A stretch of DNA of 41,160 bases from an uncultured Oscillospiraceae bacterium (GCA_964620835.1 CAZUIA010000002.1:1-41160); one strand, 5' to 3'. Numbered from the stretch's first letter, positions 7,092 to 37,570 are shown. A program made the numbers and translations. The notes: generated by a model from the sequence alone, not told the origin.

Positions 7092-8414
7092 TTACTGGAA
7101 CAGGTGAAAGCCCGCCGGGCTTCCCGAGCCCGTGCACCCTTCCTCGGAGCCGTACACCTGGCACTCCCGCGTGCCGCAGTAGACGCATGCCCTGGTATGC
7201 CAGGCGTTTGCGGCGTCCTGGACGCATGACCAATGGAGGCCGCAGGGAAGCGGTGTATGCACGCCGTCCATGCAGATATAGTGTCCCACCACGCCGCAGG
7301 CCGAGGGGGCATGGGTTTGCCCGTTGTTTTCCTGGCACTGCCTGTGGCCGCAGGCCATGATTGTCTGGTGGCGGGCCTCGTCGCCGGAAGCGATCCATTG
7401 GCTGCAGAACACGCAGATGTTGGCCGGCGGCGGCGCCGGCGTGGGCGTCGGCACAGGGCCGCCGGGATAGGGCACGGCATTGCCGCTCAAGAGCTTACCA
7501 AACGTCGCGCTGCCGGCGATGCCGTCCGGGAACAGGCCGTTGAAGGACTGGAAGGTGGCCACCGACCATTTGGTGCCCTGCCCAAAATAGTTCGTCGCCG
7601 GGCCGGAAAAATACCCGTACGCGGAAAGCAGCTGCTGCAGATACCCCACGTCCGGGCCGCTCAGGCCCTCGTACAGGGTGCGCGTAAACAGCGAGTGCGG
7701 CGTGGGCGAAGGATACAGCGGCACGCTGCCCGCCGGGATCGCCGCCGCGCTGTAGACCCGTGAAAGCGTGGCCGGTCCCGCGATGCCGTCCTCGGCCAGC
7801 CCGTTCACCTTCTGAAACCACGCGACGGCGTTTCGGGTGTTGGTGAGGTACTTGCCGCTGTACGCGTCAAAGTAATACCCCAAAAAGCCCAGGCGGTACT
7901 GCAGTTCCAGGACGTCCTGGCCGCTCATGCCGTAGGAAAGCGAGGTGCGTGGGGCCGGCGTTTCGCCGTAGACCACCGCCGCGCCGCCGGCCAGCGCGCG
8001 GATGGTCCGCGCGCCCGCGATGCCGTCGGCCTTCAGGCCGTTATTCTTTTGAAACGCGATCACCATGCCGCGCGTCTTGGAGCCGTATTCCCCGTCCACC
8101 TCCAGGGCATAGCCGTACTGGTTCAGCAGGTCCTGCAGGGTTTCGACGTCCTCGCCGGTGCAGCCCCGGTACAGCTCGCGCGTGATGGAGGTGCCCGTGT
8201 AGATCACCTTGGCCGTGGGGGCCGCCGTGGGCCGGGGCGTCACGGCGGCGGCCACTGCCACGGGCGCGGGCGGCTGCGTGGCCTGCGGCAGCGGGGTGGC
8301 CTGCTGTGAAACGACGATCCGCTCAGTTTGCAACGCCTCTTTTGTGTACGTGGCGCTCGTCGACACCGCGGCGCCGATCAACAGGGAAAGAAGCATTACC
8401 CGAAGCGTATCCAT
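7092..8414 (-). CDS. Secreted protein with three PG_binding_1 repeats and a Cys/His-rich C-terminal module
   Basis: It has the signal peptide MDTLRVMLLSLLIGAAVSTSA. Three repeats follow the pattern G.DV..LQ..L...GY.....G.[YF]G..T...V..FQ...GL..DGIAG..T. The last 112 aa contain 12 Cys and 8 His. An AAGAGGAGA SD precedes ATG 8414. Confidence 0.85.
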   Translation of the reverse strand: MDTLRVMLLSLLIGAAVSTSATYTKEALQTERIVVSQQATPLPQATQPPAPVAVAAAVTPRPTAAPTAKVIYTGTSITRELYRGCTGEDVETLQDLLNQYGYALEVDGEYGSKTRGMVIAFQKNNGLKADGIAGARTIRALAGGAAVVYGETPAPRTSLSYGMSGQDVLELQYRLGFLGYYFDAYSGKYLTNTRNAVAWFQKVNGLAEDGIAGPATLSRVYSAAAIPAGSVPLYPSPTPHSLFTRTLYEGLSGPDVGYLQQLLSAYGYFSGPATNYFGQGTKWSVATFQSFNGLFPDGIAGSATFGKLLSGNAVPYPGGPVPTPTPAPPPANICVFCSQWIASGDEARHQTIMACGHRQCQENNGQTHAPSACGVVGHYICMDGVHTPLPCGLHWSCVQDAANAWHTRACVYCGTRECQVYGSEEGCTGSGSPAGFHLFQ

Positions 8415-18844: not shown

Positions 18845-19181
18845 CTATGCCTGCCCACGGCGCCTCGGGCTTTCCGAGGGCATCCGATATGGCCGAAATC
18901 AAATGCCGCGCAGGCAATATGGCGACGCCCCTTTATGCCCGAATTATGGAAAGCTGTGCGGATGAGGTGAGCTGTGCGGCCGAGCAGGTATGGATAGAGA
19001 TGCGGGGGCAACGGAAAAAGACTCGGCCGGGATACCTCCGTATGGGCAGCCGCAAGGGCGTACGCATGCCATGCCCGCATCAACCCATGCGCCCTTGATG
19101 GATTCCTTTGGCCGGCCGTGCCCCGTTGCCCCTGGGTTGAAAAGAAGCCTGTGCGTCACCCATTCGCGAAAACGCATCGAA

Positions 19182-19667
19182 TCATTGCAACACGACTTCA
19201 GCGCCCCGCTGTTCCTTTACATGCAGCGAAGTCAGGTTCAGCCGCAAATAGGTTGCGCCCAGCTCTTCATATTCCTCCAAAACGCCGATTGCCTCAACCC
19301 ATGCGTTTTCCTCCGGACTTGCAATCCCGACATCCTCGCTCCACGTGACCTCAAAGCCCACGGTTCCGTCGTTTCCGCAGCATCCCGGCCCATATCGAAA
19401 CACAATGCGGACGGTTGAACCGGTCGGCTCATAGGGGAAGGACGCAAACATCCCCTCCAGCTTGATTGTTTTCCCGGCGTATTCCTTCGGGTTCAAGTAA
19501 ACGTCGTTCACTTGGGCGACAAACATCTTCTCCTTGATTTCCAGATCATATTCGTTGGCATCCGCGGCCAATTCCGCGACAGCCTCCGATTTGTATGGAT
19601 CCTGGCTGCATGCCGAAAGGGACAGGGCAAGCGACAGCAGCACGATCACAGACAACCATCTTTTCAT
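19182..19667 (-). CDS. Lipoprotein resembling the C-terminal domain of DUF1980/YcgQ (TIGR03943-type) proteins, with a GCC motif
   Basis: I trimmed the ORF to ATG 19667, which overlaps the znuB stop as ATGA. It has the lipobox LSLALSLSAC. The sequence YLNPKEYAGKTIKLEGMF......VRIVFRYGPGCCGNDGTVGFEV parallels B. subtilis YcgQ as I remember it (Y.NPEKYKGKTIEFTGFV...ARFGMTCCVADASVYG). Confidence 0.65.
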   Translation of the reverse strand: MKRWLSVIVLLSLALSLSACSQDPYKSEAVAELAADANEYDLEIKEKMFVAQVNDVYLNPKEYAGKTIKLEGMFASFPYEPTGSTVRIVFRYGPGCCGNDGTVGFEVTWSEDVGIASPEENAWVEAIGVLEEYEELGATYLRLNLTSLHVKEQRGAEVVLQ

Positions 19668-20491
19668 ACAATCCCCCTCTTTTTCAGGATACCGGCGCCG
19701 GAAAACAGCAAAAACGCCAGGAGGCTGACCCCCACAATGCTTGCCCCTGTGGGCAGCGCGGCCATATAGGAAATGACAAGCCCCGCAAAAAAGCAGACAA
19801 CGGACACGACGGCCGAACACAAAATGACCGAACGGAAGGTTTTGCATACCCGCATGCTGATCAGCGCCGGGAAAATGATCAGGCTGGAGATGAGCAGCGC
19901 GCCCATCATGCGCATACCGAGCACGATCGTCAGCGCGGTCAGCAAGGCGATCAGCATGGTATACGCGCCCGCGTTCGTGCCCGTGGCCTGCGCAAAATTC
20001 TCGTCAAAGGTCACGGCGAAGATCTTACTGTAAAAAAGGACGAACAGCACCAGCACGACAGCGCACAGCGCGATGCTCAGGTACACATCGTTTTTGCTCA
20101 TCGCCAGGATGCTGCCGAACATATAGTTGCACACATCGGTATTCATGCCGGTTGATATGGAGACGATGATGACGCCGATTGCCAACGAGCCTGTGGAAAT
20201 GAGGGCGATCGCGGCGTCCCCTTTGATTTTGCTGCTTTCCCGAATGCGCAGCAAGAGAAAAGCCGCAAGCATCACAACCGGGATGGAAACGGTAAGCGGA
20301 GAGAGGCCCAGCGCGGTCGCCAGGGCCATGGAGCCAAAGCCGACATGGGAAAGACCGTCGCCGATCATCGAGTATCTTTTCAGAACGAGGCTGACCCCCA
20401 GCAGCGCGGCGCAAAGGGATACCAGCAATCCGACAATCAGCGCCCTCGTCAGGAACGTGTAGGAGAACATTTCGATCAAGGTCTGGATCAT
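19664..20491 (-). CDS. znuB: Zinc/manganese ABC transporter permease (ABC-3 family)
   Basis: The 275-aa polytopic membrane protein has FLTRALIVGLLVSL, MIGDGLSHVGFG and other motifs typical of ZnuB/TroCD-type permeases. It overlaps znuC by 4 nt. Confidence 0.9.
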   Translation of the reverse strand: MIQTLIEMFSYTFLTRALIVGLLVSLCAALLGVSLVLKRYSMIGDGLSHVGFGSMALATALGLSPLTVSIPVVMLAAFLLLRIRESSKIKGDAAIALISTGSLAIGVIIVSISTGMNTDVCNYMFGSILAMSKNDVYLSIALCAVVLVLFVLFYSKIFAVTFDENFAQATGTNAGAYTMLIALLTALTIVLGMRMMGALLISSLIIFPALISMRVCKTFRSVILCSAVVSVVCFFAGLVISYMAALPTGASIVGVSLLAFLLFSGAGILKKRGIV

Positions 20492-21195
20492 TCGTGCCGC
20501 CCTCCCAGAAAGTACTTCCCCAGTTCGGTGTTGCGGTACGCTTCGGCGGAGCCGAAGAAAACCTGCTTGTTCTGCAGGTGCAGGATATGGCTGGCGTAGG
20601 AAACCGCGCTGTGAACGTCATGGGATACCATCACGACCGTGATGCCCATTTCACGGTTGATGCGGTCGATCAGCGCGTACAGCTCCTGCGTGACGACCGG
20701 GTCAAGCCCGGCCACCGGCTCATCCAGCAGCAGCAGCTTTTTCGTTGCGCACAGCGCCCTGGCCAGCAACACGCGCTGCTGCTGGCCGCCGGACAGCTCC
20801 CGATAGCAGCGGTTTCGCAAAACGGTAAGGCCCAGCTGTTCCATGTGGCTGAAGGCGGTTTGCCTGTCTTCCTTGGCATAGAACGGGCGGATGCCCCGGC
20901 TGTTGAGCCGGCCGGACAGAACCACCTCGTACACGCTGGCTGGAAAATCCTTTTGCGCGGCGGTTTGCTGGGGAAGATAGCCGATTTCATTGGGTGAAAG
21001 GCCGTCGCCCATCTCCACCGAACCCTGACAGGGCGCGATCAATCTCAGCAGTCCTTTCACCAGCGTGCTTTTCCCCGAGCCATTTTCACCGACAACGCAT
21101 AAATACATCCCGCTTTCGATGGTAAAGTTCAGCCCTTCCACCACGCAGTTTCCGTCATAGGCAAAAGCGGCATCCTTGTATGCAATCAACGCCAT
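20488..21195 (-). CDS. znuC: Zinc ABC transporter ATP-binding protein
   Basis: It has Walker A GENGSGKST, the signature LSGGQQQRVLLARAL, Walker B LLLLDEP and the YLPQ motif typical of ZnuC. A GAGGAGGA SD precedes ATG 21195. Confidence 0.9.
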   Translation of the reverse strand: MALIAYKDAAFAYDGNCVVEGLNFTIESGMYLCVVGENGSGKSTLVKGLLRLIAPCQGSVEMGDGLSPNEIGYLPQQTAAQKDFPASVYEVVLSGRLNSRGIRPFYAKEDRQTAFSHMEQLGLTVLRNRCYRELSGGQQQRVLLARALCATKKLLLLDEPVAGLDPVVTQELYALIDRINREMGITVVMVSHDVHSAVSYASHILHLQNKQVFFGSAEAYRNTELGKYFLGGRHE

Positions 21196-21260
21196 AGAAA
21201 GTGAATCCTCCTCAAAGGCAGCCCGCCAGCGTGCGGCGCGGCCGCTTGGTACACCCGCCT

Positions 21261-21289
21261 ACCATACTATATACCGTATGGATGCACAA
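21261..21289 (-). promoter_or_regulatory. Candidate internal promoter for znuCB-lipoprotein (TTGTGC-17-TATGGT) overlapped by the inverted repeat CCATAC-N8-GTATGG (21262-21281)
   Basis: The minus strand reads TTGTGCatccatacggtatatagTATGGT. The palindrome covers the spacer and the -10, the position expected for a repressor operator. Confidence 0.3.
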
Positions 21290-21308
21290 CGCTTTCGGGG
21301 TGTCTTTT

Positions 21309-21324
21309 AGATTTCTTTAGAAAT
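21309..21324. promoter_or_regulatory. Operator-like AT-rich motif AGATTTCTTTAGAAAT (core TTTCTTTAGAAA)
   Basis: It is 14/16 identical to AGATTCCTTTAGAAAC at 24514-24529. Its core is 11/12 identical to the perfect palindrome TTTCTTAAGAAA at 24537-24548. It sits between the SH3-protein stop and the znuC promoter. Confidence 0.4.
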
Positions 21325-21332
21325 GCCTCCGG

Positions 21333-21908
21333 TCACTCGGAAGCGAAAAGGCAATCCAGGCACCAGCACCATGTGCAAGGGGCAAGGCCCTGCGCCTGTG
21401 CGCTTGACAGCGTTGTCTGCCGCGCCCCCTGAGGCATGCGGTCGCATGACGGCGAGCTGTGGTAGATCCCGTCCGCCACCCAGGCGGGCGTTTCGTCCTT
21501 TGGCGGGCTGTGGGAGGACAGCTTTGACCCGCTCACTTTGGCAGTGGCCCGCTGCGCCGCCAGGCGCTTCTTTTCTTCCTCCAACGCCTCCAAATATGCT
21601 TCCTCGCCGATTTCATCCAGCAGGTCGCTGCGAATGAACCCCTGTTTGCCGGCGTACTCCACCTGGATCCAAAGGGTTCCGGCTTCGTCCTCTTCTTCGC
21701 CCAGCCATTTCATGACCGTGCCCGTGATCGGAACTTTGACGACGACCTTCGCCTTTGCGTTGGGGTGCTTTCTCACATTGACGCCCTTGATATTGGTCTG
21801 CCCATATCGGGCGGCGGACTCATCCTCTGTTTTATACGCGCTTGCCCCGGCAACGGATGCGGCGATGCACAGGCACAAAAACAGCAAGCATACCGCTTTA
21901 CACCGCAT
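21333..21908 (-). CDS. Secreted SH3b-domain protein with a C-terminal YH-x5-C...PCxxC (Ada-type zinc-motif-like) tail
   Basis: I prefer the start at ATG 21908 (AAAGGA SD 7 nt upstream); ATG 21926 is possible. It has the signal peptide MRCKAVCLLFLCLCIAASVAGASA and an SH3-like segment GVNVRKHPNAKAKVVVKVPITGTVMKWLGEEEDEAGTLWIQVEYAGKQGFIRSDLL. The tail reads YHSSPSCDRM...AQAQGLAPCTWCWCLDC. Confidence 0.7.
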   Translation of the reverse strand: MRCKAVCLLFLCLCIAASVAGASAYKTEDESAARYGQTNIKGVNVRKHPNAKAKVVVKVPITGTVMKWLGEEEDEAGTLWIQVEYAGKQGFIRSDLLDEIGEEAYLEALEEEKKRLAAQRATAKVSGSKLSSHSPPKDETPAWVADGIYHSSPSCDRMPQGARQTTLSSAQAQGLAPCTWCWCLDCLFASE

Positions 21909-21939
21909 TTTTCTATCCTTTCCCATAGCGCGCGGGAGA

Positions 21940-21964
21940 GGGCTGCCCCCGCGGGAGGCAGCCC
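21940..21964 (-). other. Intercistronic GC stem-loop (8-bp stem GGGCTGCC/GGCAGCCC, 9-nt loop) just after znuA
   Basis: Read directly from the sequence. No U-tract follows on the minus strand, so it looks more like an mRNA stabiliser or processing structure than a full terminator. Confidence 0.4.
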
Positions 21965-21995
21965 CTGCGCTATATCGGGTCGCTTTTGCTAATTG

Positions 21996-24050
21996 CTATT
22001 GCAGCGCCTGTTTGAGGCTTTCGACGTTGCGCCACATCAGCTCCAGGTAACCGGTTCCGCTTTCAAAGTCGCTTCTGGACACGTTGTGGACAGAGTGCAT
22101 TTCCAGCTTCGTCGCGTTCGTGCTCGCCGCGATCGTATCCGCGATTTTGCCGTTTGAAAACTCAATCGTGAACACGACGGGAAGGTTTTCCTCCTTGGTT
22201 TTGTCGATCAGAAACGCGATGGTGGCGGCGCTGGCCTCTGTGTCGGTCGAGCAGCCGGTGAAGGCCGCAAAATAGTCCAGACCGTAGTCTTTGGCCAGGT
22301 AGCGGAACGGAAAGCGGTCGCCAAACAGAATGGTCCTGCGGCTGGAGTCCTTCACGACAGCCTCAAACGCCAGATCCAGGGCGTCGAGCTCCACCAGGTA
22401 TGCCATTGCGTTCTCGCGGTAGGTCTGCGCGTTCGCCGGGTCAAGCGATGCCAGCGCCTCCGTCAGTTGCGCGACGATCAGCTTGGCGTTTTTCGGGGAA
22501 GTCCATACGTGCTCGTCCAGCTCCGCCTCGTGATCGTGATCATGGTCGTGGTCTTCCTCGTCATGGCTGTGGCTGTGCCCCAGCATGTCCTCGGCAATCG
22601 CTTCCCCGTCCATATCGGCCCGGAAGAAGGTCGGCCAGTTGTCCATCTCCTCCAGCAGCGCCGCAAAGCCGTCGTTGCCCATGTAGATATGGAAGTGGTG
22701 AAGGTCCTCCGTAGGCTGGATCATGTGATCGCTGAACTGGATGAACTTCGGCGCGCCGTTGGTCTCGCCGACCGCCTCAAACAGATACCGGACGCCTTTG
22801 CCGCCGCTTTCATACGTCAGAATCTCAAAGCCCCTGTACTCGTACGCCGCCTTTTGCACGGTATCGCCCATGTAATACGAAATGGTTTCGCCGTCAATCA
22901 CCACGCGGTCGTACTCGGTCTCATAGCCCGTCGTATAATACTGCTTGTATTCCTCGGCCGTTTTGCTGTCGTCCTGCTCGGCCTTTTCGACGAACACATG
23001 ATCCAGCGTGCCATCCAGAACATAGGGGTACCCGGACTGCCAATCGCCCTGCCAGTCGGCCAGCGTGGGGCGGTCCTGCACGTCGCTGTCCTCAAAGGTT
23101 TCGCTGTGGCTGTGGCCGTGATCATGGCCCACCATGGTTTCCCTGACCTGATCCGCGGTGGCGGACGCATCGAAATACATCGTGCTCCAGTTTTCTACGT
23201 TCATCAGCTCTTCCACGTTTTCGCCATACCGAAAATGCGTATGGGCTACGCCTTCCTCGCCGTGGTCATCCCCCGCTTCATTGCCGGTGCCATGGTCGTT
23301 AAAGAGCAGATAGGTCGGCATGTTCGGCGTGCCGTCCGCCAGCTTCAGGATATACCACGCGGAGGTTTCGGTGGGCTCAAAGCCGGCGTATGCGTACTGG
23401 GCCGTGATCCCGTTCAAGGTCACCTGTCCGTTGTGGACGGAGTAGGTGTCATAGTCCGACGCCCAGCGCGTCTTGTAGGTTTCGAGCATTTCCTCAACGG
23501 AAACCTCATTTTCCTCGGCCTTTGTTTTCACCCATTCGTCCAGGGTGCCATCCAGCAAATAGGGCATGCCGGTTTTCCAGTCGCCGTCAAAGTCGGTGAT
23601 GGGGCGATCCTTGGGGGGAAGCGCCTCCTCGGACTCCTCATGGTCATGGGAGTGCTCCATGCCTTCGACGATTTCCTCTTCCACCGTGTCCACCATGTCG
23701 ACCAGCGCGAGAATCTTCATATTCTCTGTGTCCATGGATTCAAGGATACGATCGACCCACACGTCCGATTCCCCGCCCACATGCAGGAATAGATCGCTGT
23801 TTTGAATGGCGATGATGTCTCGGGGGCTGGGTTCAAAGGAATGGCTTTCCGCGCCCGGGGACAGGAGCATCGTCAATTCCACGTTGTCTCCGGCGATCTG
23901 CCGAATGAAATCATACGGCGGGAAAATTGTCGTGACCACGCGCAGCTTCCCGTCCTCGGCCAAAGCTCCGGAAGTCTCCGTAATCAGGCCGCCCAGGAGC
24001 GTAGCGGTAAAAAGGCAGGCAATTGCTGCCAGTGCAAATATTCGTTTCAT
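21996..24050 (-). CDS. znuA: Zinc ABC transporter substrate-binding protein with two ZinT/YodA-like domains inserted in the His-rich loop (684 aa)
   Basis: The N lobe reads GKLRVVTTIFPPYDFIRQIAG...SPGAESHSFEPSP. The C lobe reads DEHVWTSPKNAKLI...FGDRFPFRYLAKDYGL...FTIEF. Between them lie two ZinT-like modules and three His-rich linkers. An ACGGAGGAA SD precedes ATG 24050. Confidence 0.9.
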   Translation of the reverse strand: MKRIFALAAIACLFTATLLGGLITETSGALAEDGKLRVVTTIFPPYDFIRQIAGDNVELTMLLSPGAESHSFEPSPRDIIAIQNSDLFLHVGGESDVWVDRILESMDTENMKILALVDMVDTVEEEIVEGMEHSHDHEESEEALPPKDRPITDFDGDWKTGMPYLLDGTLDEWVKTKAEENEVSVEEMLETYKTRWASDYDTYSVHNGQVTLNGITAQYAYAGFEPTETSAWYILKLADGTPNMPTYLLFNDHGTGNEAGDDHGEEGVAHTHFRYGENVEELMNVENWSTMYFDASATADQVRETMVGHDHGHSHSETFEDSDVQDRPTLADWQGDWQSGYPYVLDGTLDHVFVEKAEQDDSKTAEEYKQYYTTGYETEYDRVVIDGETISYYMGDTVQKAAYEYRGFEILTYESGGKGVRYLFEAVGETNGAPKFIQFSDHMIQPTEDLHHFHIYMGNDGFAALLEEMDNWPTFFRADMDGEAIAEDMLGHSHSHDEEDHDHDHDHEAELDEHVWTSPKNAKLIVAQLTEALASLDPANAQTYRENAMAYLVELDALDLAFEAVVKDSSRRTILFGDRFPFRYLAKDYGLDYFAAFTGCSTDTEASAATIAFLIDKTKEENLPVVFTIEFSNGKIADTIAASTNATKLEMHSVHNVSRSDFESGTGYLELMWRNVESLKQALQ

Positions 24051-24110
24051 GATCTGTATTCCTCCGTACTGTTTTGTGATGGCTTTGATTGCATGGGATG
24101 ACGGAGGCTC

Positions 24111-24413
24111 TCAAGGGTTCATGCGCACCTTGAGCGTAATCAGCGTCGGATGCCCGGCGAATCGGACGCCCCGCGCCGCACGTTTTGAAAACTGGCTGAA
24201 AAACAAGAAGGGAAGGGCTGTGAAAAGCATGACATACAGCTGGCGAAGCAGCGCCTGAAACGCCCACACGAAGCAGCAAACCGCGCATTCGGCCCTCTCC
24301 TGGGGATGCTCGTGATGATGAAGGGCGGGAACTGCCAGCACAAGCAGTGTCAGCGCGAGGAATACCACAAAAAGCACCCTGGCGGCTTGCCGCTCTTTTC
24401 GTGCGGTGCGCAT
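24111..24413 (-). CDS. Small membrane protein (100 aa) with an HHHEH...CxxCC motif; first gene of the zinc locus
   Basis: I trimmed the ORF to ATG 24413 (AAGGGGA SD 7 nt upstream): MRTARKERQAARVLFVVFLALTLLVLAVPALHHHEHPQERAECAVCCFVWAF...PTLITLKVRMNP. It has two hydrophobic segments flanking the His/Cys cluster. I recognise no family. Confidence 0.6.
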   Translation of the reverse strand: MRTARKERQAARVLFVVFLALTLLVLAVPALHHHEHPQERAECAVCCFVWAFQALLRQLYVMLFTALPFLFFSQFSKRAARGVRFAGHPTLITLKVRMNP

Positions 24414-24465
24414 TCGCTCATCCCCTTTCTTCAGTGTCTGTATGCCGGCCCTTTGCCTGGTGCAT

Positions 24466-24494
24466 ACAATACCACGCGAATTTTCCGAAAACAA
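24466..24494 (-). promoter_or_regulatory. Candidate sigma-A promoter of the zinc locus (TTGTTT-17-TGgTATTGT)
   Basis: The minus strand reads TTGTTTtcggaaaattcgcgTGgTATTGT, about 50 nt upstream of ATG 24413. Confidence 0.4.
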
Positions 24495-24513
24495 GCCGTC
24501 CGGCCGGTTCTTC

Positions 24514-24559
24514 AGATTCCTTTAGAAACGGGCCGGTTTCTTAAGAAATAAAAAGAAAC
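24514..24559. promoter_or_regulatory. Cluster of operator-like motifs: AGATTCCTTTAGAAAC (24514-24529), perfect 12-bp palindrome TTTCTTAAGAAA (24537-24548), extra half-site AGAAAC (24554-24559)
   Basis: Read directly from the sequence. The cluster lies between the two divergent promoters (zinc locus and response regulator). It is related to the motif at 21309-21324. Confidence 0.45.
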
Positions 24560-24569
24560 GCCGCATCCG

Positions 24570-24599
24570 GTGACAGGCCTTGGGGACGTGCGGTATAAT
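24570..24599 (+). promoter_or_regulatory. Candidate promoter of the two-component operon (GTGACA-18-TATAAT); geometry suggests a leaderless mRNA
   Basis: TATAAT ends 7 nt before the A of ATG 24607, and no SD lies between them. Confidence 0.4.
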
Positions 24600-24606
24600 A
24601 CGGCAT

Positions 24607-25302
24607 ATGGAAAAGAAGGCTGTAATCCTGGCTGTGGACGATGAGGCGGACATCCGGGAGGTGCTGCGGCTCCTGCTGGAAGCGGACGGATACGCGGTGT
24701 GCGAGGCGTCAAGCGGCGATGAGGCGCTCCGTAAGCTGACCGAGGATGTGAGCCTTGTCGTTTTGGATGTGGTGATGCCGGGGGAAAGCGGCTATGAGGT
24801 GTGCGAGCGACTGCGCGAGCGCAGCAACGTGCCGGTTCTCTTTTTGACCGCCAAATCACAGGAACAGGACAAGGTGCGGGGGCTTCAATGCGGGGGGGAT
24901 GATTACTTGACCAAGCCGTTTTCCGCCGCCGAGCTTGGCGCGCGCGTCGCAGCGCTGCTGCGGCGCTATCAGGTGTATCAGGGAAGCGCGGATGTGCAAA
25001 GCGGCCGTTTTGTCCGTCAATCGGTCTGTATTGATTTTGCGTCCGGCACGGTGGCGCGCAATGAAAAGCAAGTCCTATTGACCGACCTGGAATACCGCCT
25101 GCTCGCATACCTGGCCAAGCACGCGGGGGAAACGATCGACGCGCAGCGGCTGTATGAAGCCGTATGGGGTGAAACGTACTTGCTCAGCTCCGCCAGCACG
25201 ATCATGGTGCACATCCGCAACCTGCGAAAAAAGCTGGAGGACGATCCGCAACAGCCGGCGCTGATCAAAACCGTCTGGGGGAAAGGATACCGCATTGATT
25301 AA
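24607..25302 (+). CDS. OmpR-family response regulator
   Basis: The receiver domain shows MEKKAVILAVDDE, VVLDVVMPGESG and LTKPF. The winged-helix output shows LTDLEYRLLAYLAKH, IMVHIRNLRKKLE and IKTVWGKGYRI. The TTG at 24580 in the track has no SD. Confidence 0.9.
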   Translation: MEKKAVILAVDDEADIREVLRLLLEADGYAVCEASSGDEALRKLTEDVSLVVLDVVMPGESGYEVCERLRERSNVPVLFLTAKSQEQDKVRGLQCGGDDYLTKPFSAAELGARVAALLRRYQVYQGSADVQSGRFVRQSVCIDFASGTVARNEKQVLLTDLEYRLLAYLAKHAGETIDAQRLYEAVWGETYLLSSASTIMVHIRNLRKKLEDDPQQPALIKTVWGKGYRID

Positions 25303-26602
25303 AACCTACATCCGCAGCAAGCTAAGCCGCCAGTTATCCGCCGTGATCCTGGCCGCGTTTGTCTTTGCCGGCATATTGTATTTGACGCTGGCTTCCGTGA
25401 TCGAAACAACCGTTTGCACGTATTATGACGGGCATCCCGAAATCGTGCAGCGGATGGCTGCGGAAAAAGTGCGCGCATTGCAGGCTATGGCCGACAGGGA
25501 AGCCGTCGCTTCCACGGATAGGGCGGCGCTCTCCACGTGGGTGGGCAGGAATGCGCTGATGATTTTGCAAGTGTTTCGCAATGGCCGGCTGATCTTCGAT
25601 TCCACGCTGGAGACCTCCTCTGCGCTGCACTCGCATTTGCAGGATCATGCGCCCCTCGCGCACCAGGCTACCCAAACCATTGTCTTTGCCGACGGACCCG
25701 CGCAGGTATCCATTGCGGTATTCCCTGAACACGCGCTGGTGGATTTGCTGAGCAAGGGATTGCTGCTACTCTGTGTGTTTTTATTCCTGGGTGTCATCTT
25801 ATGGAGCGTCCGAAGGAAGATACAGTATTTGGTGAAGTTAGAGCAGGAGGTGCTGGCCATCGCCGGGGGGGACCTAGAGTTGCCGCTCACGCACAGGGGG
25901 ACGGATGAGCTGGCCATGCTGTCGGAATGTATCGACGAGATGCGTCAATCGATGATCGAGCGCATCCGTCAGGAGGAGTCCCGCCAGCAGGAGCGGTACG
26001 AGTGGGTCGCTTCCATGTCGCACGACCTGCGAACGCCGTTGACGGCGCTCACAGGCTATCTGGAGGTCATGGCGCGTGGGGGCTTGTCCAATCCAAGCCG
26101 GGCCTATCTCCAAAAATGCTTGGAGAAAGCCTTCCGGCTGAAGGAAATGACAGACATGCTTTTTGCCAGCTTTACCTCCAGCGCGCCGCTTCTCGAAACG
26201 CTTATTCCGATGCCTGCAAATGAACTGATGCGTGCATTCATTCAGGAAGGGCTGACATACCTGCGGGAAAAAGGGTATGAGACGGAAATCCGCGGCGCAA
26301 CAGAAAACCATGACATCATGATTCAAAAGGCCGCGCTGCACCGCGTCTTTGACAATGTCTTTCAAAACATCGCAAAATACGCGTCCCCCCATGCTCCGGT
26401 GACCGTTGCATGGAACATGGAAAGCGATTCGCGCTTTTCGATCTTGATTCACAGCGGATTGAGGGGGACGGCGCTGTCGCACGGCAGCGGATTTGGCTTG
26501 ACGATCTGCTCGAATCTCATCCAAAACATGGGAGGGGATTTTCGCGCCCGCGCTTTTGACGGGGTGTTCGAGTATCGGATTGAGTTGAAGGCGCGCGCAT
26601 AA
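25295..26602 (+). CDS. Sensor histidine kinase (two TM segments, HAMP, HisKA, HATPase_c)
   Basis: It uses a TTG start after GAAAGGA and overlaps the regulator stop by 8 nt. It has the H-box SMSHDLRTPLTAL, the N-box FDNVFQNIAKY and the G-box GSGFGLTICSNL. Confidence 0.9.
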   Translation: MIKTYIRSKLSRQLSAVILAAFVFAGILYLTLASVIETTVCTYYDGHPEIVQRMAAEKVRALQAMADREAVASTDRAALSTWVGRNALMILQVFRNGRLIFDSTLETSSALHSHLQDHAPLAHQATQTIVFADGPAQVSIAVFPEHALVDLLSKGLLLLCVFLFLGVILWSVRRKIQYLVKLEQEVLAIAGGDLELPLTHRGTDELAMLSECIDEMRQSMIERIRQEESRQQERYEWVASMSHDLRTPLTALTGYLEVMARGGLSNPSRAYLQKCLEKAFRLKEMTDMLFASFTSSAPLLETLIPMPANELMRAFIQEGLTYLREKGYETEIRGATENHDIMIQKAALHRVFDNVFQNIAKYASPHAPVTVAWNMESDSRFSILIHSGLRGTALSHGSGFGLTICSNLIQNMGGDFRARAFDGVFEYRIELKARA

Positions 26603-26642
26603 CCCCTTGCCGATATGGTCCCTATCGCGTTCTGCCGCCCCT

Positions 26643-26673
26643 TCATAACGCGCGGCCATGCGTGGCACACTAT
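26643..26673 (+). promoter_or_regulatory. Candidate forespore (sigma-G/F-type) promoter upstream of splB: TCATA-N18-CACACTAT
   Basis: It matches the remembered sigma-G consensus GHATR-N18-CAHWHTAH at all -10 positions and at 4/5 of the -35. It lies 19 nt upstream of ATG 26692. Confidence 0.35.
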
Positions 26674-26691
26674 GGGCCGGGGGCGGCAAGA

Positions 26692-27693
26692 ATGGATATG
26701 CGCTTTGATAGGGTCTATTACGAGCCGGATGCGCTTGGGTATGGTCTGGGGCAGATGCTCCGGGGCAAATACGCGGCCTTGCCTTGGGTAGCCATAGAGA
26801 ATCATAACCGTATACCGGAACTGACGGCGGCGGAAAACCGGGATTTCCCGAAACTGAAAAGGCACCTTATCGTCGCGGTGAGAAAGACACACCGGTATGT
26901 GCCAAACCATAAGGTTTCCGACTGGCTGGTCCCCTACACATCTTCCGGCTGCCGGGCCATGTGCCTGTATTGCTATCTGGTATGCAGTTACAACAAGTGC
27001 TCCTATTTTCGCCTGTTTGTCAACCGCGAGCAAATGCTGGGAAAGCTGCTTCAAAAGGACGCCGTCGCCGCCGTGCCGCAGACCTTTGAGATTGGCAGCA
27101 ACAGCGATCTGCTGCTGGAAAACACAATCACGGACAACTTGCGCTTTACAATCGAGCGTTTTGCGCGCGAAGGCCGGGGCAGGCTGACTTTTCCCACGAA
27201 ATTTGACAGGGTCGATCCGCTGCTGAACCTTGACCATAGAGGCAAGACAATCTTTCGCATGAGCGTGAACCCGCAGGAGATCATACGCCGCGTCGAACTG
27301 GGCACCTCGCCGCTGCGCGCACGGATTCGCGCGCTCAACGACGTGGCGGAAGCCGGATATCCGGTGGGCCTGTTGATCGCGCCCGTGATCCTGCTCCCGG
27401 ACTGGAAGTTCCTGTATGAAGAGCTGATAGAGCAGCTTTCGGATGAACTGAGCGAAAAGGTACTGCGCAGCGGCTTCATAGAGATCATCCTGATGACGTA
27501 CAGCTTCGTACAGAATATCATCAACTCGGAGGCATTTCCCAATGCCGTGCCGCTTTTTAACCGGGAAATCATGACCGGGCGCGGGCGCGGAAAATACTGC
27601 TACCGAAACGATATCCGCGCACAGGCCGAATCCTTTTTGCGAATGAAGATCGCGCGGCAGTTGGGCTCTATGCCGATCCTGTATATTTCATGA
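26692..27693 (+). CDS. splB: Spore photoproduct lyase (radical SAM)
   Basis: MDMRFDRVYYEPDALGYGLG is a typical SplB N terminus. The radical-SAM cluster is CRAMCLYCY, followed by EIGSNSDLL and the conserved C-terminal region. The GTG at 26662 in the track lies inside the candidate promoter. Confidence 0.9.
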   Translation: MDMRFDRVYYEPDALGYGLGQMLRGKYAALPWVAIENHNRIPELTAAENRDFPKLKRHLIVAVRKTHRYVPNHKVSDWLVPYTSSGCRAMCLYCYLVCSYNKCSYFRLFVNREQMLGKLLQKDAVAAVPQTFEIGSNSDLLLENTITDNLRFTIERFAREGRGRLTFPTKFDRVDPLLNLDHRGKTIFRMSVNPQEIIRRVELGTSPLRARIRALNDVAEAGYPVGLLIAPVILLPDWKFLYEELIEQLSDELSEKVLRSGFIEIILMTYSFVQNIINSEAFPNAVPLFNREIMTGRGRGKYCYRNDIRAQAESFLRMKIARQLGSMPILYIS

Positions 27694-27817
27694 CGGAAAA
27701 GGGAGATCCCTGCACAGGCTGCTTCAAAATCAGTTGGCCGGCCCTTTCAGCAAACGCACCTATCGTACAGCATTCAGTGATACCCCAGCTTCCAATCCAA
27801 AAAACGCATAAAAACGA

Positions 27818-27847
27818 TTGACAATTATATGCATATTATGGTATAAT
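27818..27847 (+). promoter_or_regulatory. Strong sigma-A promoter TTGACA-18-TGgTATAAT with the palindrome ATATGCATAT (27827-27836) in the spacer
   Basis: Read directly from the sequence. It lies 48 nt upstream of the marR-family ATG. The palindrome is a plausible MarR auto-operator. Confidence 0.6.
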
Positions 27848-27895
27848 GCCTTAAGTCTGATTTCGGACTAAATTGGGTGTGCAGGAGGTGCCCAA

Positions 27896-28342
27896 ATGGA
27901 TCACACGTCCAAAATGCGGCGGGTCATTGACACCTGGTATGACGACTGGTTCGCGATGGATCGCCTCTATTATGAATGGGCGCGCCGGCGCGGGATCACC
28001 GGGACGATCCTTTTTACGCTGTACGCCATTCATGCCATTGGAAAGGCCTGCACGCCGGGCCAGATTGTCGAAAAGCTGGCGCTTTCCAAGCAGACGGTCA
28101 ACTCCACGCTGGATACCCTGGAGGCCCGGGGCTTTATTTCCCGCCAGCGCGATACCGTGGACCAGCGCAGCCGCATTGTCAGCCTGACGGACGAAGGGCG
28201 CGCGTACGCGGAGGAGCTCCTCGGCGCGCTGGACGATGCCGAGCAAGGGGCTTTTTCCGCGCTCGGCAACGACCTGCAAACGATGATCGACCTGAACCGA
28301 AAGCTCGTACAGGCCATGCGCCGGGAGCTTTCGGTGCGATAG
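27896..28342 (+). CDS. MarR-family transcriptional regulator
   Basis: A CAGGAGGTG SD is followed by ATG 27896. The winged-HTH pattern is PGQIVEKLALSKQTVNSTLDTLEARGFISRQRDTVDQRSRIVSLTDEG. Confidence 0.9.
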   Translation: MDHTSKMRRVIDTWYDDWFAMDRLYYEWARRRGITGTILFTLYAIHAIGKACTPGQIVEKLALSKQTVNSTLDTLEARGFISRQRDTVDQRSRIVSLTDEGRAYAEELLGALDDAEQGAFSALGNDLQTMIDLNRKLVQAMRRELSVR

Positions 28343-35758: not shown

Positions 35759-37570
35759 ATGATGAAACGCATCTGTGTGTGTATGGTGGCACTGGCCATC
35801 CTGTTGGCCGCTCTGACGCCCTTTGCGGTTGCGGAACAGACACGGGTGACGCGCTGCGATCTTCGCCTGCGCAAGGAAGCCAACAGCAAATCGGATACGC
35901 TCGTCGTCGTGCCGGGCGGCGCAGAGCTGCCCATTTTGGGAAGAAGCGGCGGATGGAGCAAGACGACCTATCTGGGCCATACGGGCTATGTGAGCACCGA
36001 CTACCTGATGGACCTCACCAGAAGCGGCTATTACCCGCTGAAGGAAGGCGACGAAAACCCATACGTCAAGGAGCTGCAGGACCGGCTCATTACGCTGGGC
36101 TATATGACCGGCAGCCCGGACGGTAAGTTTGGCAAGAGCACGCTCGATGCCGTGATCAGCTTTCAGAAGACAAACAATATGAAGGCCGACGGCATTGCCG
36201 GCGGCGAAACGCAGCGTATCCTCTTTGGCGACACGGCCAAGGCCGCGACCGGGCAGACGGTGGACGCGGCGCCCTCGGCCTCTTCGCCCACAACGAATGC
36301 GACGGCCGCGCCGACAGCCGTCCCTTCCAGCCAGACCCTCCGCCTGGGGGACCGCGGCGAGGACGTCAAATCGCTGCAGGCGCGCCTGATTGAGCTTGGC
36401 TACCTGTCCGGCAAGGCGGACGGCATCTTTGGCGCGGATACCGAAAAGGCGGTCGTCGCGTTCCAGAAGCTCTCCAGCCTGACCGCGGACGGCAAGGCCG
36501 GCAAGGTAACGCAGAACCTGCTGTATTCAAACGGCGCCAAGACCGCGCAGGGAACGACGGCTCCCGCCGAAAAGCCGTCCGATACAGCCACCGCATCCTA
36601 TACGACCCTCAAGGCCGGCATGACCAACAACGAGGTCAAGAAGCTTCAGGAGCGCCTGATCGCGCTGAAGTATTTGGATACGAAGGCGACCGGCTATTAC
36701 GGATCGGCGACCAAGGCGGCGGTGGAAAAATTCCAGGCCTTGCATAACCTGAAGGTCGACGGCATCGCCGGGGCCGGCACGCAGCAGCAGCTTTTCGCCA
36801 GCAGCGCCAAGGCCAACGGCGCAAGCTCCACCAGCGGATCGGAATCGATGCAAAAGTACGACACGCTCAAGTATGGCATGAAGTCCAGCGCCGTGACGAC
36901 CATGCAGAAGAAGCTCAAGAGCCTTGGCTATCTGTCCGCCAGCGCGACCGGATACTTCGGCACCGAGACACAGAAGGCGGTTGTCCAGTTCCAAAAGGCG
37001 CACAAGCTTGCGGCGGACGGCGTCGCGGGCAGCGCAACGCTCAGCAAGCTGTACAGCGAAAGCGCCGCGGCGGCGGGTTCGTCCGGCGGTTCTTCCCAAA
37101 GCAATGCCCCCGGCAAGATCAGCGGCCCCTCCGCTTCGTCCGTCAAGCTGCTGCACTGGTTCAACCAGGTAAAGCCGTCGCTCAAAAACGGCAGCATCCT
37201 GCAGGTGTACGACCCGGCCACCGGCTACGGCTGGAAGCTTCGCGCGATGTCCCTGGGCAGGCACTGCGACTCCGAGCCGCTGACGGCGGAGGACACGCTG
37301 TACATGAACGCGGCGTTTGGCAATGTGACCACCTGGACCCCGAAGGTCGTCTGGGTGCAGCTCCCCTCCGGCAGCTGGTCGTTTGCCACGATGCACAATG
37401 TGGCGCACCTGTCGGGCGGAATCGCCAACAACAACTTTGACGGCCACCTGTGCGTTCACTTCCTGCGCGACATGGACGAGGTCTCCAAGAACGACCCGAA
37501 CTACGGCGTCCAGCATCAGAAGGCCATCCGCGAGGGCTGGAAGAAGCTAACCGGCCAGGTCATCAACTGA
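35759..37570 (+). CDS. Secreted protein: SH3b domain, five PG_binding_1 repeats and a ~150-aa C-terminal domain of unknown function
   Basis: It has the signal peptide MMKRICVCMVALAILLAALTPFAVA and an SH3-like segment LRLRKEANSKSDTLVVVPGGAELPILGRSGGWSKTTYLGHTGYVSTDYL. Five repeats follow the pattern V..LQ..L..LGY....[AP]DG.[FY]G..T..AV..FQ....L.[AV]DG.AG..T. A GAGGGAGGG SD is present. Confidence 0.85.
   Translation: MMKRICVCMVALAILLAALTPFAVAEQTRVTRCDLRLRKEANSKSDTLVVVPGGAELPILGRSGGWSKTTYLGHTGYVSTDYLMDLTRSGYYPLKEGDENPYVKELQDRLITLGYMTGSPDGKFGKSTLDAVISFQKTNNMKADGIAGGETQRILFGDTAKAATGQTVDAAPSASSPTTNATAAPTAVPSSQTLRLGDRGEDVKSLQARLIELGYLSGKADGIFGADTEKAVVAFQKLSSLTADGKAGKVTQNLLYSNGAKTAQGTTAPAEKPSDTATASYTTLKAGMTNNEVKKLQERLIALKYLDTKATGYYGSATKAAVEKFQALHNLKVDGIAGAGTQQQLFASSAKANGASSTSGSESMQKYDTLKYGMKSSAVTTMQKKLKSLGYLSASATGYFGTETQKAVVQFQKAHKLAADGVAGSATLSKLYSESAAAAGSSGGSSQSNAPGKISGPSASSVKLLHWFNQVKPSLKNGSILQVYDPATGYGWKLRAMSLGRHCDSEPLTAEDTLYMNAAFGNVTTWTPKVVWVQLPSGSWSFATMHNVAHLSGGIANNNFDGHLCVHFLRDMDEVSKNDPNYGVQHQKAIREGWKKLTGQVIN

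Follow-up and report, generated by a model that had tools for sequence, protein, structure and literature searches.

Bacterial zinc importers of the ZnuABC type are usually regarded as three-part machines with occasional soluble helpers (ZinT, AztD, Pht), and the question raised by the znu locus described here is why it carries three further genes. The locus lies on a 41,160-nucleotide (nt) stretch of DNA from an uncultured Oscillospiraceae bacterium (GCA_964620835.1, CAZUIA010000002.1:1-41160; the whole stretch is referred to as the window). Six minus-strand genes encode, in order, a small His/Cys membrane protein (p1), a binding protein of the ZnuA family, a secreted SH3b protein (p3), the ATP-binding cassette (ABC) ATPase ZnuC, the permease ZnuB and a lipoprotein with a DUF1980_C domain (p6). 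Judged from its sequence and that of its relatives, the locus combines an importer of familiar type with accessory genes that are conserved yet undescribed, and shows an unusual regulatory and architectural elaboration. The reading put forward here, to which we give a probability of about 0.6, is that of a zinc importer on a five-gene core (p1, ZnuA, ZnuC, ZnuB and p6) conserved in anaerobes, with helper proteins, activation by a two-component system, and the gain of ZinT modules and of p3.

The core was delineated by a census of related loci. A ZnuA scan with one genome per species gave 80 loci; hidden Markov models (HMMs) of p1 and p6 were run on 142 fetched loci and the window, and the ZnuA proteins were clustered at 90% identity. 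The p1-ZnuA-ZnuC-ZnuB-p6 census has hits in 41 loci, which represent 24 ZnuA clusters (lineages), and the core occurs in Bacillota, Spirochaetota and Synergistota, with hosts that include Treponema primitia (L084), Synergistaceae (L086 and L087), Dehalobacterium (L085) and Anaerotignum (L002). Of the 23 clusters whose sequence extends upstream, 21 have p1; of the 18 whose sequence runs past ZnuB, 17 have p6 there; and 15 of the 18 evaluable clusters have both. Among the Clostridial relatives with long enough contigs, the order znuA, znuC, znuB, DUF1980_C is kept in all but L008, and znuA abuts znuC. Four contexts with a distant p6 (Treponema primitia, Dehalobacterium, Synergistaceae and another Firmicute) have the same order and an overlap between ZnuB and p6, and a variant order (ZnuA, p6, ZnuC, ZnuB) is seen in L110 (7908-11080). 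As a negative control, 28 loci of the Streptococcus/Enterococcus/Granulicatella type with ZnuA, ZnuC and ZnuB have neither p1 nor p6.

It is thus very probable that p1 and p6 are associated with the importer. Co-conservation of the three accessory genes with znuABC in relatives had been set beforehand as a test that could refute the initial annotation, which read the locus as a six-gene zinc-acquisition system; the outcome favours that idea, in that p1 and p6 are widely kept, while p3 is rare and lineage-specific.

p6 matches DUF1980_C (PF21537) with 47.7 bits against a cut-off of 25.9. The full-length TIGR03943 (YcgQ) model gives 39 bits against a cut-off of 88.8 and covers profile positions 103-212 only, the N-terminal membrane domain of that family being replaced in p6 by a lipoprotein signal. 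A search with p6 returned 503 relatives, and all 120 of those listed carry PF21537, 119 of them alone and one (P0101) together with ABC-3; many are from termite-gut Treponema and from Clostridia, and some sources name them as YcgQ family. In their alignment the GPGCCGxD loop is invariant across phyla and a C-terminal RGxExVxQ motif is conserved. The AlphaFold (AF2) model of p6 has a predicted local distance difference test (pLDDT) score of 86, above 94 in the domain, which adopts an OB fold. Fold searching returned generic OB-fold matches (SSB, AspRS), with PA4066 (4hsp) at rank 50 and a template modelling (TM) score of about 0.4. No functional study of DUF1980, TIGR03943, YcgQ, COG3689 or UPF0703, and no link of these to zinc, was found in the literature searched, and neither a paper on ZepA nor one on COG0523 makes mention of these proteins.

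p6 is also linked to the permease at the level of the genes. The 4-nt overlap of ZnuB and p6 recurs in L084, L085 and L088, and in L104 (6889-8274) ZnuB and p6 share one stop-to-stop reading frame, in whose predicted product the lipoprotein signal of p6 would serve as an extra membrane helix. P0101 was considered as a clean ZnuB-p6 fusion and set aside; it is a truncated product on a 1.2-kb contig and counts only as support for L104. Downstream of p6 no convincing terminator structure was found.

p1 carries an HHHEH...CAVCC loop and a C-terminal TLITLKVRMNP tail. It has no match in Pfam or NCBIfam, members of its family match no Pfam model, the family profile finds nothing in the PDB, and a word-index search with p1 returned only the window's own protein. 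Homologues were found instead through synteny with L081, a locus in an Oscillospiraceae metagenome bin whose 94-residue counterpart occupies the same position and shares the membrane helix, His residues, CxxC and C-terminus, and then with a small HMM. This HMM matches small open reading frames (ORFs) just upstream of znuA in Clostridial loci and in Treponema, Dehalobacterium and other contexts, among them one ORF that had not been called. The family has a basic N-terminus, a first membrane helix, an H-x-C-x-G-x-x-C-x-x-C loop, a second hydrophobic stretch and a basic C-terminus ending in (S/T)LVxLKVR(L/M)N(N/P); one His and the CxxC are invariant, an extra Cys is present in most members and the LKVR(L/M)N tail is conserved. 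The positive-inside rule predicts an outward-facing His/Cys loop and a cytoplasmic position for the conserved tail. p1 is a real gene of a family that has no Pfam or NCBIfam model.

Association with the transporter need not mean that p1 and p6 handle zinc, and direct zinc handling by the helpers is put at slightly less than an even chance. They could instead be true partners of the transporter that carry no zinc and act in assembly, docking or gating, with cysteines that are structural or redox-active; p6 might, for example, position ZnuA on ZnuB, and p1 might be a small regulatory membrane protein that throttles import. Conservation and fusion speak for association and not for metal binding, p6 is an OB fold free of His, zinc binding is not evident for PA4066, an OB protein encoded in a Zur-regulated operon (PMC11481552), and the cytoplasmic tail of p1, strictly conserved as it is, resembles a docking peptide more than it does a metal site. 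Yet the invariant His and CxxC of p1, together with the extra Cys of most members, make up a classic zinc-ligand set outside the membrane, and the p6 loop has stayed invariant across phyla, so that a role confined to assembly, docking or gating is considered unlikely.

The binding protein is one of the rare features of the locus. It matches the ZnuA family (PF01297) with 249 bits against a cut-off of 29, split into residues ~1-136 and 494-682, and matches the lipocalin-like ZinT domain (PF09223) with 297.6 bits in two stretches. Since these stretches fall between the ZnuA halves, the two modules sit within the His-rich loop of ZnuA and are not appended; the loop itself is present, with EHSHDHEE, GHDHGHSHSE and GHSHSHDEEDHDHDHDHE flanking the modules. 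Module 2 is canonical, with 61% identity to a free ZinT and an alignment to the Escherichia coli and Salmonella ZinT proteins that includes DH...HFH; module 1 is divergent and keeps DH...HTH. The NCBIfam AdcA model (NF033605), which has ZnuA followed by a C-terminal ZinT, scores 362 bits against a cut-off of 700. Only three clusters of ZnuA with two inserted ZinT modules (P0126, P0127 and P0129) were found among 1.84 billion representative proteins, and about one and a half dozen of the best 150 matches have the length expected for a one-ZinT form, inserted or appended. A metagenome scan with the two-ZinT ZnuA alignment yielded no further two-ZinT loci and added one-ZinT and no-ZinT loci to the census. 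Giant proteins with multiple ZinT-like stretches also occur in the representative set, P0130 with 1873 residues and nine matched stretches and P0144 with 1106 residues and four.

The window ZnuA is 54% identical to the 688-residue two-ZinT ZnuA of L081. Both have a signal peptide of the A-x-A type (window 24050-23950; L081 3838-3930) with no convincing lipobox, unlike many one-ZinT relatives, which are lipoproteins. Relative to AdcA (7jj9), His204 is replaced by Arg and Glu279 by His (window residues ~579 and ~655). The Arg lies in an invariant FGDRFPFRY motif, at the position of the third His ligand, and the His lies in SVHNV, at the position of the Glu ligand. Because these two AdcA ligands align with Arg and His, the metal site of ZnuA is, as far as the alignment tells, rebuilt in this clade.

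p3 accompanies this form of ZnuA. It consists of a signal peptide, an SH3b domain (SH3_3, PF08239; 33.3 bits against a cut-off of 27), a long helix and a tail of the form YHSxxxC...SAQAQGLxxCxxCWCLDCLF; in the structure model, the SH3 domain (residues 34-100) and the long helix are confident. The tail had been called Ada-like in the initial annotation, a likeness that did not hold up: the tails of p3 and its L081 counterpart have no Pfam match at E<=10, the Ada N-terminal zinc-binding domain included, and at the same threshold the PDB sequences gave one chance match, a urea transporter (E 0.36), and no Ada chain. Only three relatives of p3 were found among 5.8 billion proteins, with the tail motif invariant among them, and a metagenome scan with the p3 alignment gave 380 pattern matches, none of them confirmed. 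p3 follows the two-ZinT ZnuA in the window, L081 and L082, as it does in every relative with context; L081 is the only other two-ZinT ZnuA whose context can be read, and there p3 stands directly after ZnuA. In L081 (6729-8967, minus strand), two convergent genes come after p3; their products have 358 and 382 residues and belong to no Pfam family.

L081 also preserves the surroundings of the p1 half of the locus. Its syntenic block comprises a kinase, a regulator, a divergent p1, the two-ZinT ZnuA and p3, with identities to the window of 42% for the kinase, 64% for the regulator, 35% for p1 and 42% for p3; znuC, znuB and p6 are not adjacent to the block. p3 is a rare, lineage-specific addition that stands outside the conserved core.

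p3 could also be a passenger, an ordinary secreted cell-wall-binding protein without a role in metal uptake that came to lie between znuA and znuC. It is absent from all the other relatives, where znuA abuts znuC, its family is tiny, and in the window it has a hairpin on one side and a separate promoter on the other. Further secreted proteins with PG_binding_1 repeats are encoded at 7092-8414 (minus strand) and 35759-37570 (plus strand), one of them also with SH3_3, so p3-like wall-binding modules are common in this genome. However, its position directly after the two-ZinT ZnuA is kept in L081 at low identity, even though znuC and znuB are not there, and CWCLDCLF, eight residues with three Cys, is invariant in the three full-length sequences aligned. 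An unrelated passenger is accordingly judged improbable.

What controls the locus differs between the window and its relatives. Immediately upstream of p1 or ZnuA, 13 loci carry a Fur-family gene, and palindromic boxes are found upstream of that gene in all seven such loci whose upstream DNA was read. Five loci of Lachnospiraceae type (L005-L008 and L029) have two copies of a palindrome close to TGAAAATnATTTTCA placed around a sigma-70-like promoter, and L003 and L004 have one related palindrome each. At the third and fourth positions of each half-site, the TGAAAATnATTTTCA-like box departs from the Fur, Zur and PerR boxes of Bacillus. None of the regulators matches an NCBIfam equivalog, those of Fur and PerR included; they are read as Zur-like because of their position. 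Of the indirect evidence that places p1 and p6 in a response to metal limitation, this Fur-family linkage is the strongest.

In the window, as the initial annotation had noted, there is no sign of Zur: neither tblastn nor an iterative HMM search found a Fur-family gene in the 41 kb, and AdcR, of the MarR family, was not searched for specifically. The Bacillus-type Zur box TCGTAATnATTACGA, allowing up to three mismatches, gave nothing relevant in the window and no site upstream of the related operons, and a scan for the Clostridial box TGAAAATnATTTTCA found none in the locus and, in the rest of the window, only three matches at chance level. The divergent neighbours of p1 encode instead a two-component system. 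The response regulator matches Response_reg (104.7 bits) and Trans_reg_C (88.4 bits). The kinase matches HisKA (46.4 bits) and HAMP (27.9 bits), with HATPase_c at 24.2 bits, just below its cut-off of 26.4. Two membrane helices are predicted in the kinase, one on either side of an extracytoplasmic segment that is some 130 residues long and contains LHSHLQDH; its likeness to the L081 kinase extends to this sensor segment. Neither protein matches an NCBIfam equivalog, the best match of the kinase being VanS-like (80 bits against a cut-off of 400).

The putative promoter regions may connect the two-component system to the importer. An 18-nt tandem repeat with 11-nt periodicity, C(T/C)AAAG(A/G)AA(C/T)CTnAA(A/G)(A/G)A, lies upstream of p1 in the window and in L081 and again before znuC in the window, and all three sites share exactly the same layout: repeat, 13 nt, TTGnnn, 17 nt, TAnnnT. 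The repeat occurs only at these sites in the 41 kb of the window and the 9.8 kb of L081 (2 in the window, against 0.05 expected in shuffles). The equal spacings of 13 nt and 17 nt are the independent part of the promoter evidence. In addition, the window and L081 each have a single copy of the 12-mer TTCTTAAGAAAC, that of L081 lying upstream of its p1, and the other 141 loci have no copy. Footprinting of the p3-znuC gap with L082 and L083 was uninformative, these being too close (89% mean column identity).

Because the same layout precedes p1 and znuC, the locus probably comprises two co-regulated units, p1-znuA(-p3) and znuC-znuB-p6. The six-gene locus of the initial annotation is a run of six adjoining co-directional genes, which are more plausibly two transcription units with the same operator than one operon. 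The neighbouring two-component system, which the initial annotation did not include, seems to take the place of the absent Zur. On the opposite strand, a near-consensus promoter (GTGACA-18-TATAAT, 24570-24607, plus strand) ends 7 nt before the regulator ATG at 24607, and for that reason the regulator mRNA may be leaderless or nearly so.

That the transporter handles Mn, Fe, Co or Ni, as metal or as chelate, and not zinc, the Fur-family regulators of the relatives being of the Fur, Mur or Nur type, is very improbable: the difference between the TGAAAATnATTTTCA box and the Bacillus Zur box, the absence of TCGTAATnATTACGA sites upstream of these operons, the regulators' want of an equivalog and the two ligand changes in ZnuA would fit it, but the ZinT His ligands are kept, long His/Asp/Glu-rich stretches flank the modules, three His are still available at the ZnuA site, and the best NCBIfam similarities (AdcA, ZinT and AztABC) are all to zinc systems.

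Under the reading as a two-component-activated zinc importer, the phosphorylated regulator would bind the tandem repeat, which is centred about 40 nt upstream of the -35 hexamer, and switch on the promoters of p1-znuA-p3 and znuC-znuB-p6, acting as an activator in Zur's place. ZnuA would have gained two ZinT modules in its His-rich loop, and the secreted p3 would have been added. Bound to the cell wall through SH3b and holding zinc on its Cys/His tail, p3 may serve as an outer collector that only the tandem-ZinT lineage has. Zinc gathered by the ZinT modules and by the His-rich stretches of ZnuA would be fed to the ZnuA site, and ZnuA would dock on ZnuB2C2. p6 is placed on the outer face beside ZnuB because of translational coupling, fusion and constant adjacency, and p1 would offer a site of the one-His, three-Cys type at the membrane surface; each could be a transporter-associated subunit that passes or senses zinc. 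Extracellular thiol ligands are plausible here since these organisms are strict anaerobes. We infer the inducing signal, the regulator's binding, the localisation of the proteins, zinc binding by p1, p3 and p6 and transfer between them, whereas gene content, domain identities, conserved order, the Fur-family linkage in relatives and the repeated promoter layout are observed.

Several findings count against this scheme. L008 lacks p6, and L106 and L110 have no detectable p1. As the znuCB-p6 half is not adjacent in L081, p1 and p3 may be partners of ZnuA and not of the permease. p6 contains no His and its closest solved folds are generic OB folds, and PA4066, the zinc-operon OB protein among its fold matches, is reported not to bind zinc (PMC11481552). 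The model of the p3 tail is of low confidence, and the hairpin in the znuA-p3 gap (minimum free energy -37.9 kcal/mol, z -1.97) might stop transcription before p3. The operator pattern was derived from the same three sites that were counted, which makes the chance estimate for the repeat partly circular. Finally, the RNA evidence consists of one 220-nt contig from an anaerobic-digester metatranscriptome, lying inside znuA.

A stronger version holds that p1 and p6 are obligatory, unrecognised importer subunits forming a thiol-based extracytoplasmic zinc relay confined to strict anaerobes, which is extended here by a wall-bound p3 and a tandem-ZinT ZnuA and is activated by a two-component system instead of being derepressed from Zur, the regulator thus being a new kind of zinc-uptake regulator. 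In this full form the proposal is doubtful.

Gene families were scored with Pfam and NCBIfam, and start codons were judged against ribosome-binding sites. All six ORFs were found in the ORF list where the initial annotation had placed them, with starts that agree with the ribosome-binding sites; the domains it had named (ZnuA with two ZinT modules, SH3b, ZnuC, ZnuB and DUF1980_C) were borne out, and the lipobox of p6 is consistent with its description as a lipoprotein. ZnuC scores 91.2 bits with PF00005 and ZnuB 199.6 bits with PF00950. The short gaps or overlaps it had described apply to znuC/znuB and znuB/p6, which overlap by 4 nt; the other gaps are of 60 nt (p1-znuA), 87 nt (znuA-p3) and 137 nt (p3-znuC).

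Table 1. Positions of genes, putative promoters and other features of the znu locus, numbered from the first letter of the window, and of the paired palindromes, numbered in the relatives named.
Feature	Position	Strand	Remarks
Sensor histidine kinase	25295..26602	+	Pfam HAMP, HisKA, HATPase_c; 42% identity to L081 kinase
OmpR/PhoB-family response regulator	24607..25302	+	Response_reg and Trans_reg_C; divergent from p1
Upstream half-site TTCTTAAGAAAC	24536..24547	-	Shared intergenic region; exact 12-mer also in L081
Putative promoter of p1-znuA(-p3)	24466..24525	-	Repeat CTAAAGGAATCTGAAGAA (24525-24508), 13 nt, TTGTTT, 17 nt, TATTGT (24471-24466)
p1, 100 residues, two predicted membrane helices	24111..24413	-	Homologous small ORFs upstream of znuA in relatives
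ZnuA-family protein, 684 residues	21996..24050	-	Pfam ZnuA and ZinT; modules ~23612-23121 and 23105-22575
G+C-rich hairpin 3' of znuA	21940..21965	-	11-bp stem, without U tract
p3, secreted SH3b protein with Cys/His tail	21333..21908	-	Pfam SH3_3
Putative second promoter, for znuC-znuB-p6	21261..21320	-	CTAAAGAAATCTAAAAGA (21320-21303), 13 nt, TTGTGC, 17 nt, TATGGT (21266-21261)
ZnuC, ABC ATPase	20488..21195	-	ABC_tran; 69% identity to L014 ZnuC
ZnuB, ABC-3 permease	19664..20491	-	ABC-3; 76% identity to L014 ZnuB
p6, DUF1980_C lipoprotein	19182..19667	-	Pfam DUF1980_C; lipobox LSAC
Paired TGAAAATnATTTTCA-like palindromes	L005 1-100; L006 120-200; L007 9050-9140; L008 235-300; L029 1230-1310		

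The locus is flanked by genes for PcrA/UvrD, LigA and a DinG-like helicase on one side and for spore photoproduct lyase on the other. G+C content is 0.54-0.58 over 19000-28000, which spans the znu locus, the two-component system and the spore photoproduct lyase, against 0.64-0.68 at 14-19 kb and 0.60-0.65 past 28 kb; given this difference from its flanks, the block at 19-28 kb may have been acquired horizontally. Metagenomes from sludge, wastewater and anaerobic digesters contain the sequence, as does one apparent isolate run. A contig of run X3 joins 19926 to 20333 and skips 406 nt of znuB at a depth of 33, and depth rises to 260 at 20646-20839, the region of the ATPase signature; both oddities are probably due to cross-mapping of other ABC genes.

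Set against the usual three-part machine, two more proteins, the micro-protein p1 and a DUF1980_C protein, travel with the importer here across three phyla of anaerobes. Should they have a part in transport, this would be the first functional context for DUF1980 and would add a new small-protein family to metal homeostasis, and it would hint at how anaerobes of the gut, the termite gut and digesters obtain zinc with extracellular thiol ligands. Control of zinc uptake by a two-component system that acts on two matching promoters in place of Zur would, if true, be unusual.

The system resembles ZnuABC and AdcABC (cluster A-I) in its families of binding protein, ABC-3 permease and ATPase and in the His-rich loop of ZnuA, and differs from them in having two or three extra conserved genes and no Fur-family gene in the window. 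AdcA of Streptococcus pneumoniae (7jj9), the closest solved structure to the window ZnuA, likewise joins ZinT to ZnuA, but with one C-terminal ZinT as opposed to two within the ZnuA loop, and two of its metal ligands are replaced here.

AztABCD of Paracoccus denitrificans is a zinc importer with a periplasmic metallochaperone, AztD (PMC6689063), and offers the parallel of a ZnuABC-type importer operon that adds an extracytoplasmic accessory serving the binding protein. In NCBIfam, ZnuC and ZnuB find their best matches in AztA, AztB and AztC, which also figure among those of ZnuA, although the scores lie below the equivalog cut-offs (167 against 220, 156.5 against 280 and 148.8 against 350). 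AztD is a beta-propeller, and no such gene is present in the locus, where the accessories are an OB-fold lipoprotein (p6) and a membrane micro-protein (p1).

In streptococci, PhtD is a surface zinc scavenger that feeds the binding protein AdcAII (PMC3842936). This pair, like free ZinT with ZnuA, is a case of a surface metal-binding protein encoded beside a binding-protein gene and can be compared with p3 by analogy only, as p3 has no histidine-triad motif (HxxHxH) in its sequence, its candidate ligands are mostly Cys and its attachment would be through SH3b. PA4063-PA4066 and ZrgABCDE, ABC operons under Zur control, include additional periplasmic proteins whose role is unclear (PMC11481552, PMC8561739). 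PA4063-PA4066 differs from the present locus in its MacB-type exporter, and PA4066 matches the fold of p6 no better than generic OB folds do and has no sequence relationship to it.

The remaining likeness is to DUF1980/TIGR03943, the putative permease subunits of YcgQ type, whose C-terminal domain p6 carries. YcgQ is normally accompanied by a predicted permease, unlike p6, whose neighbour is the ABC-3 permease of a ZnuABC-type importer.

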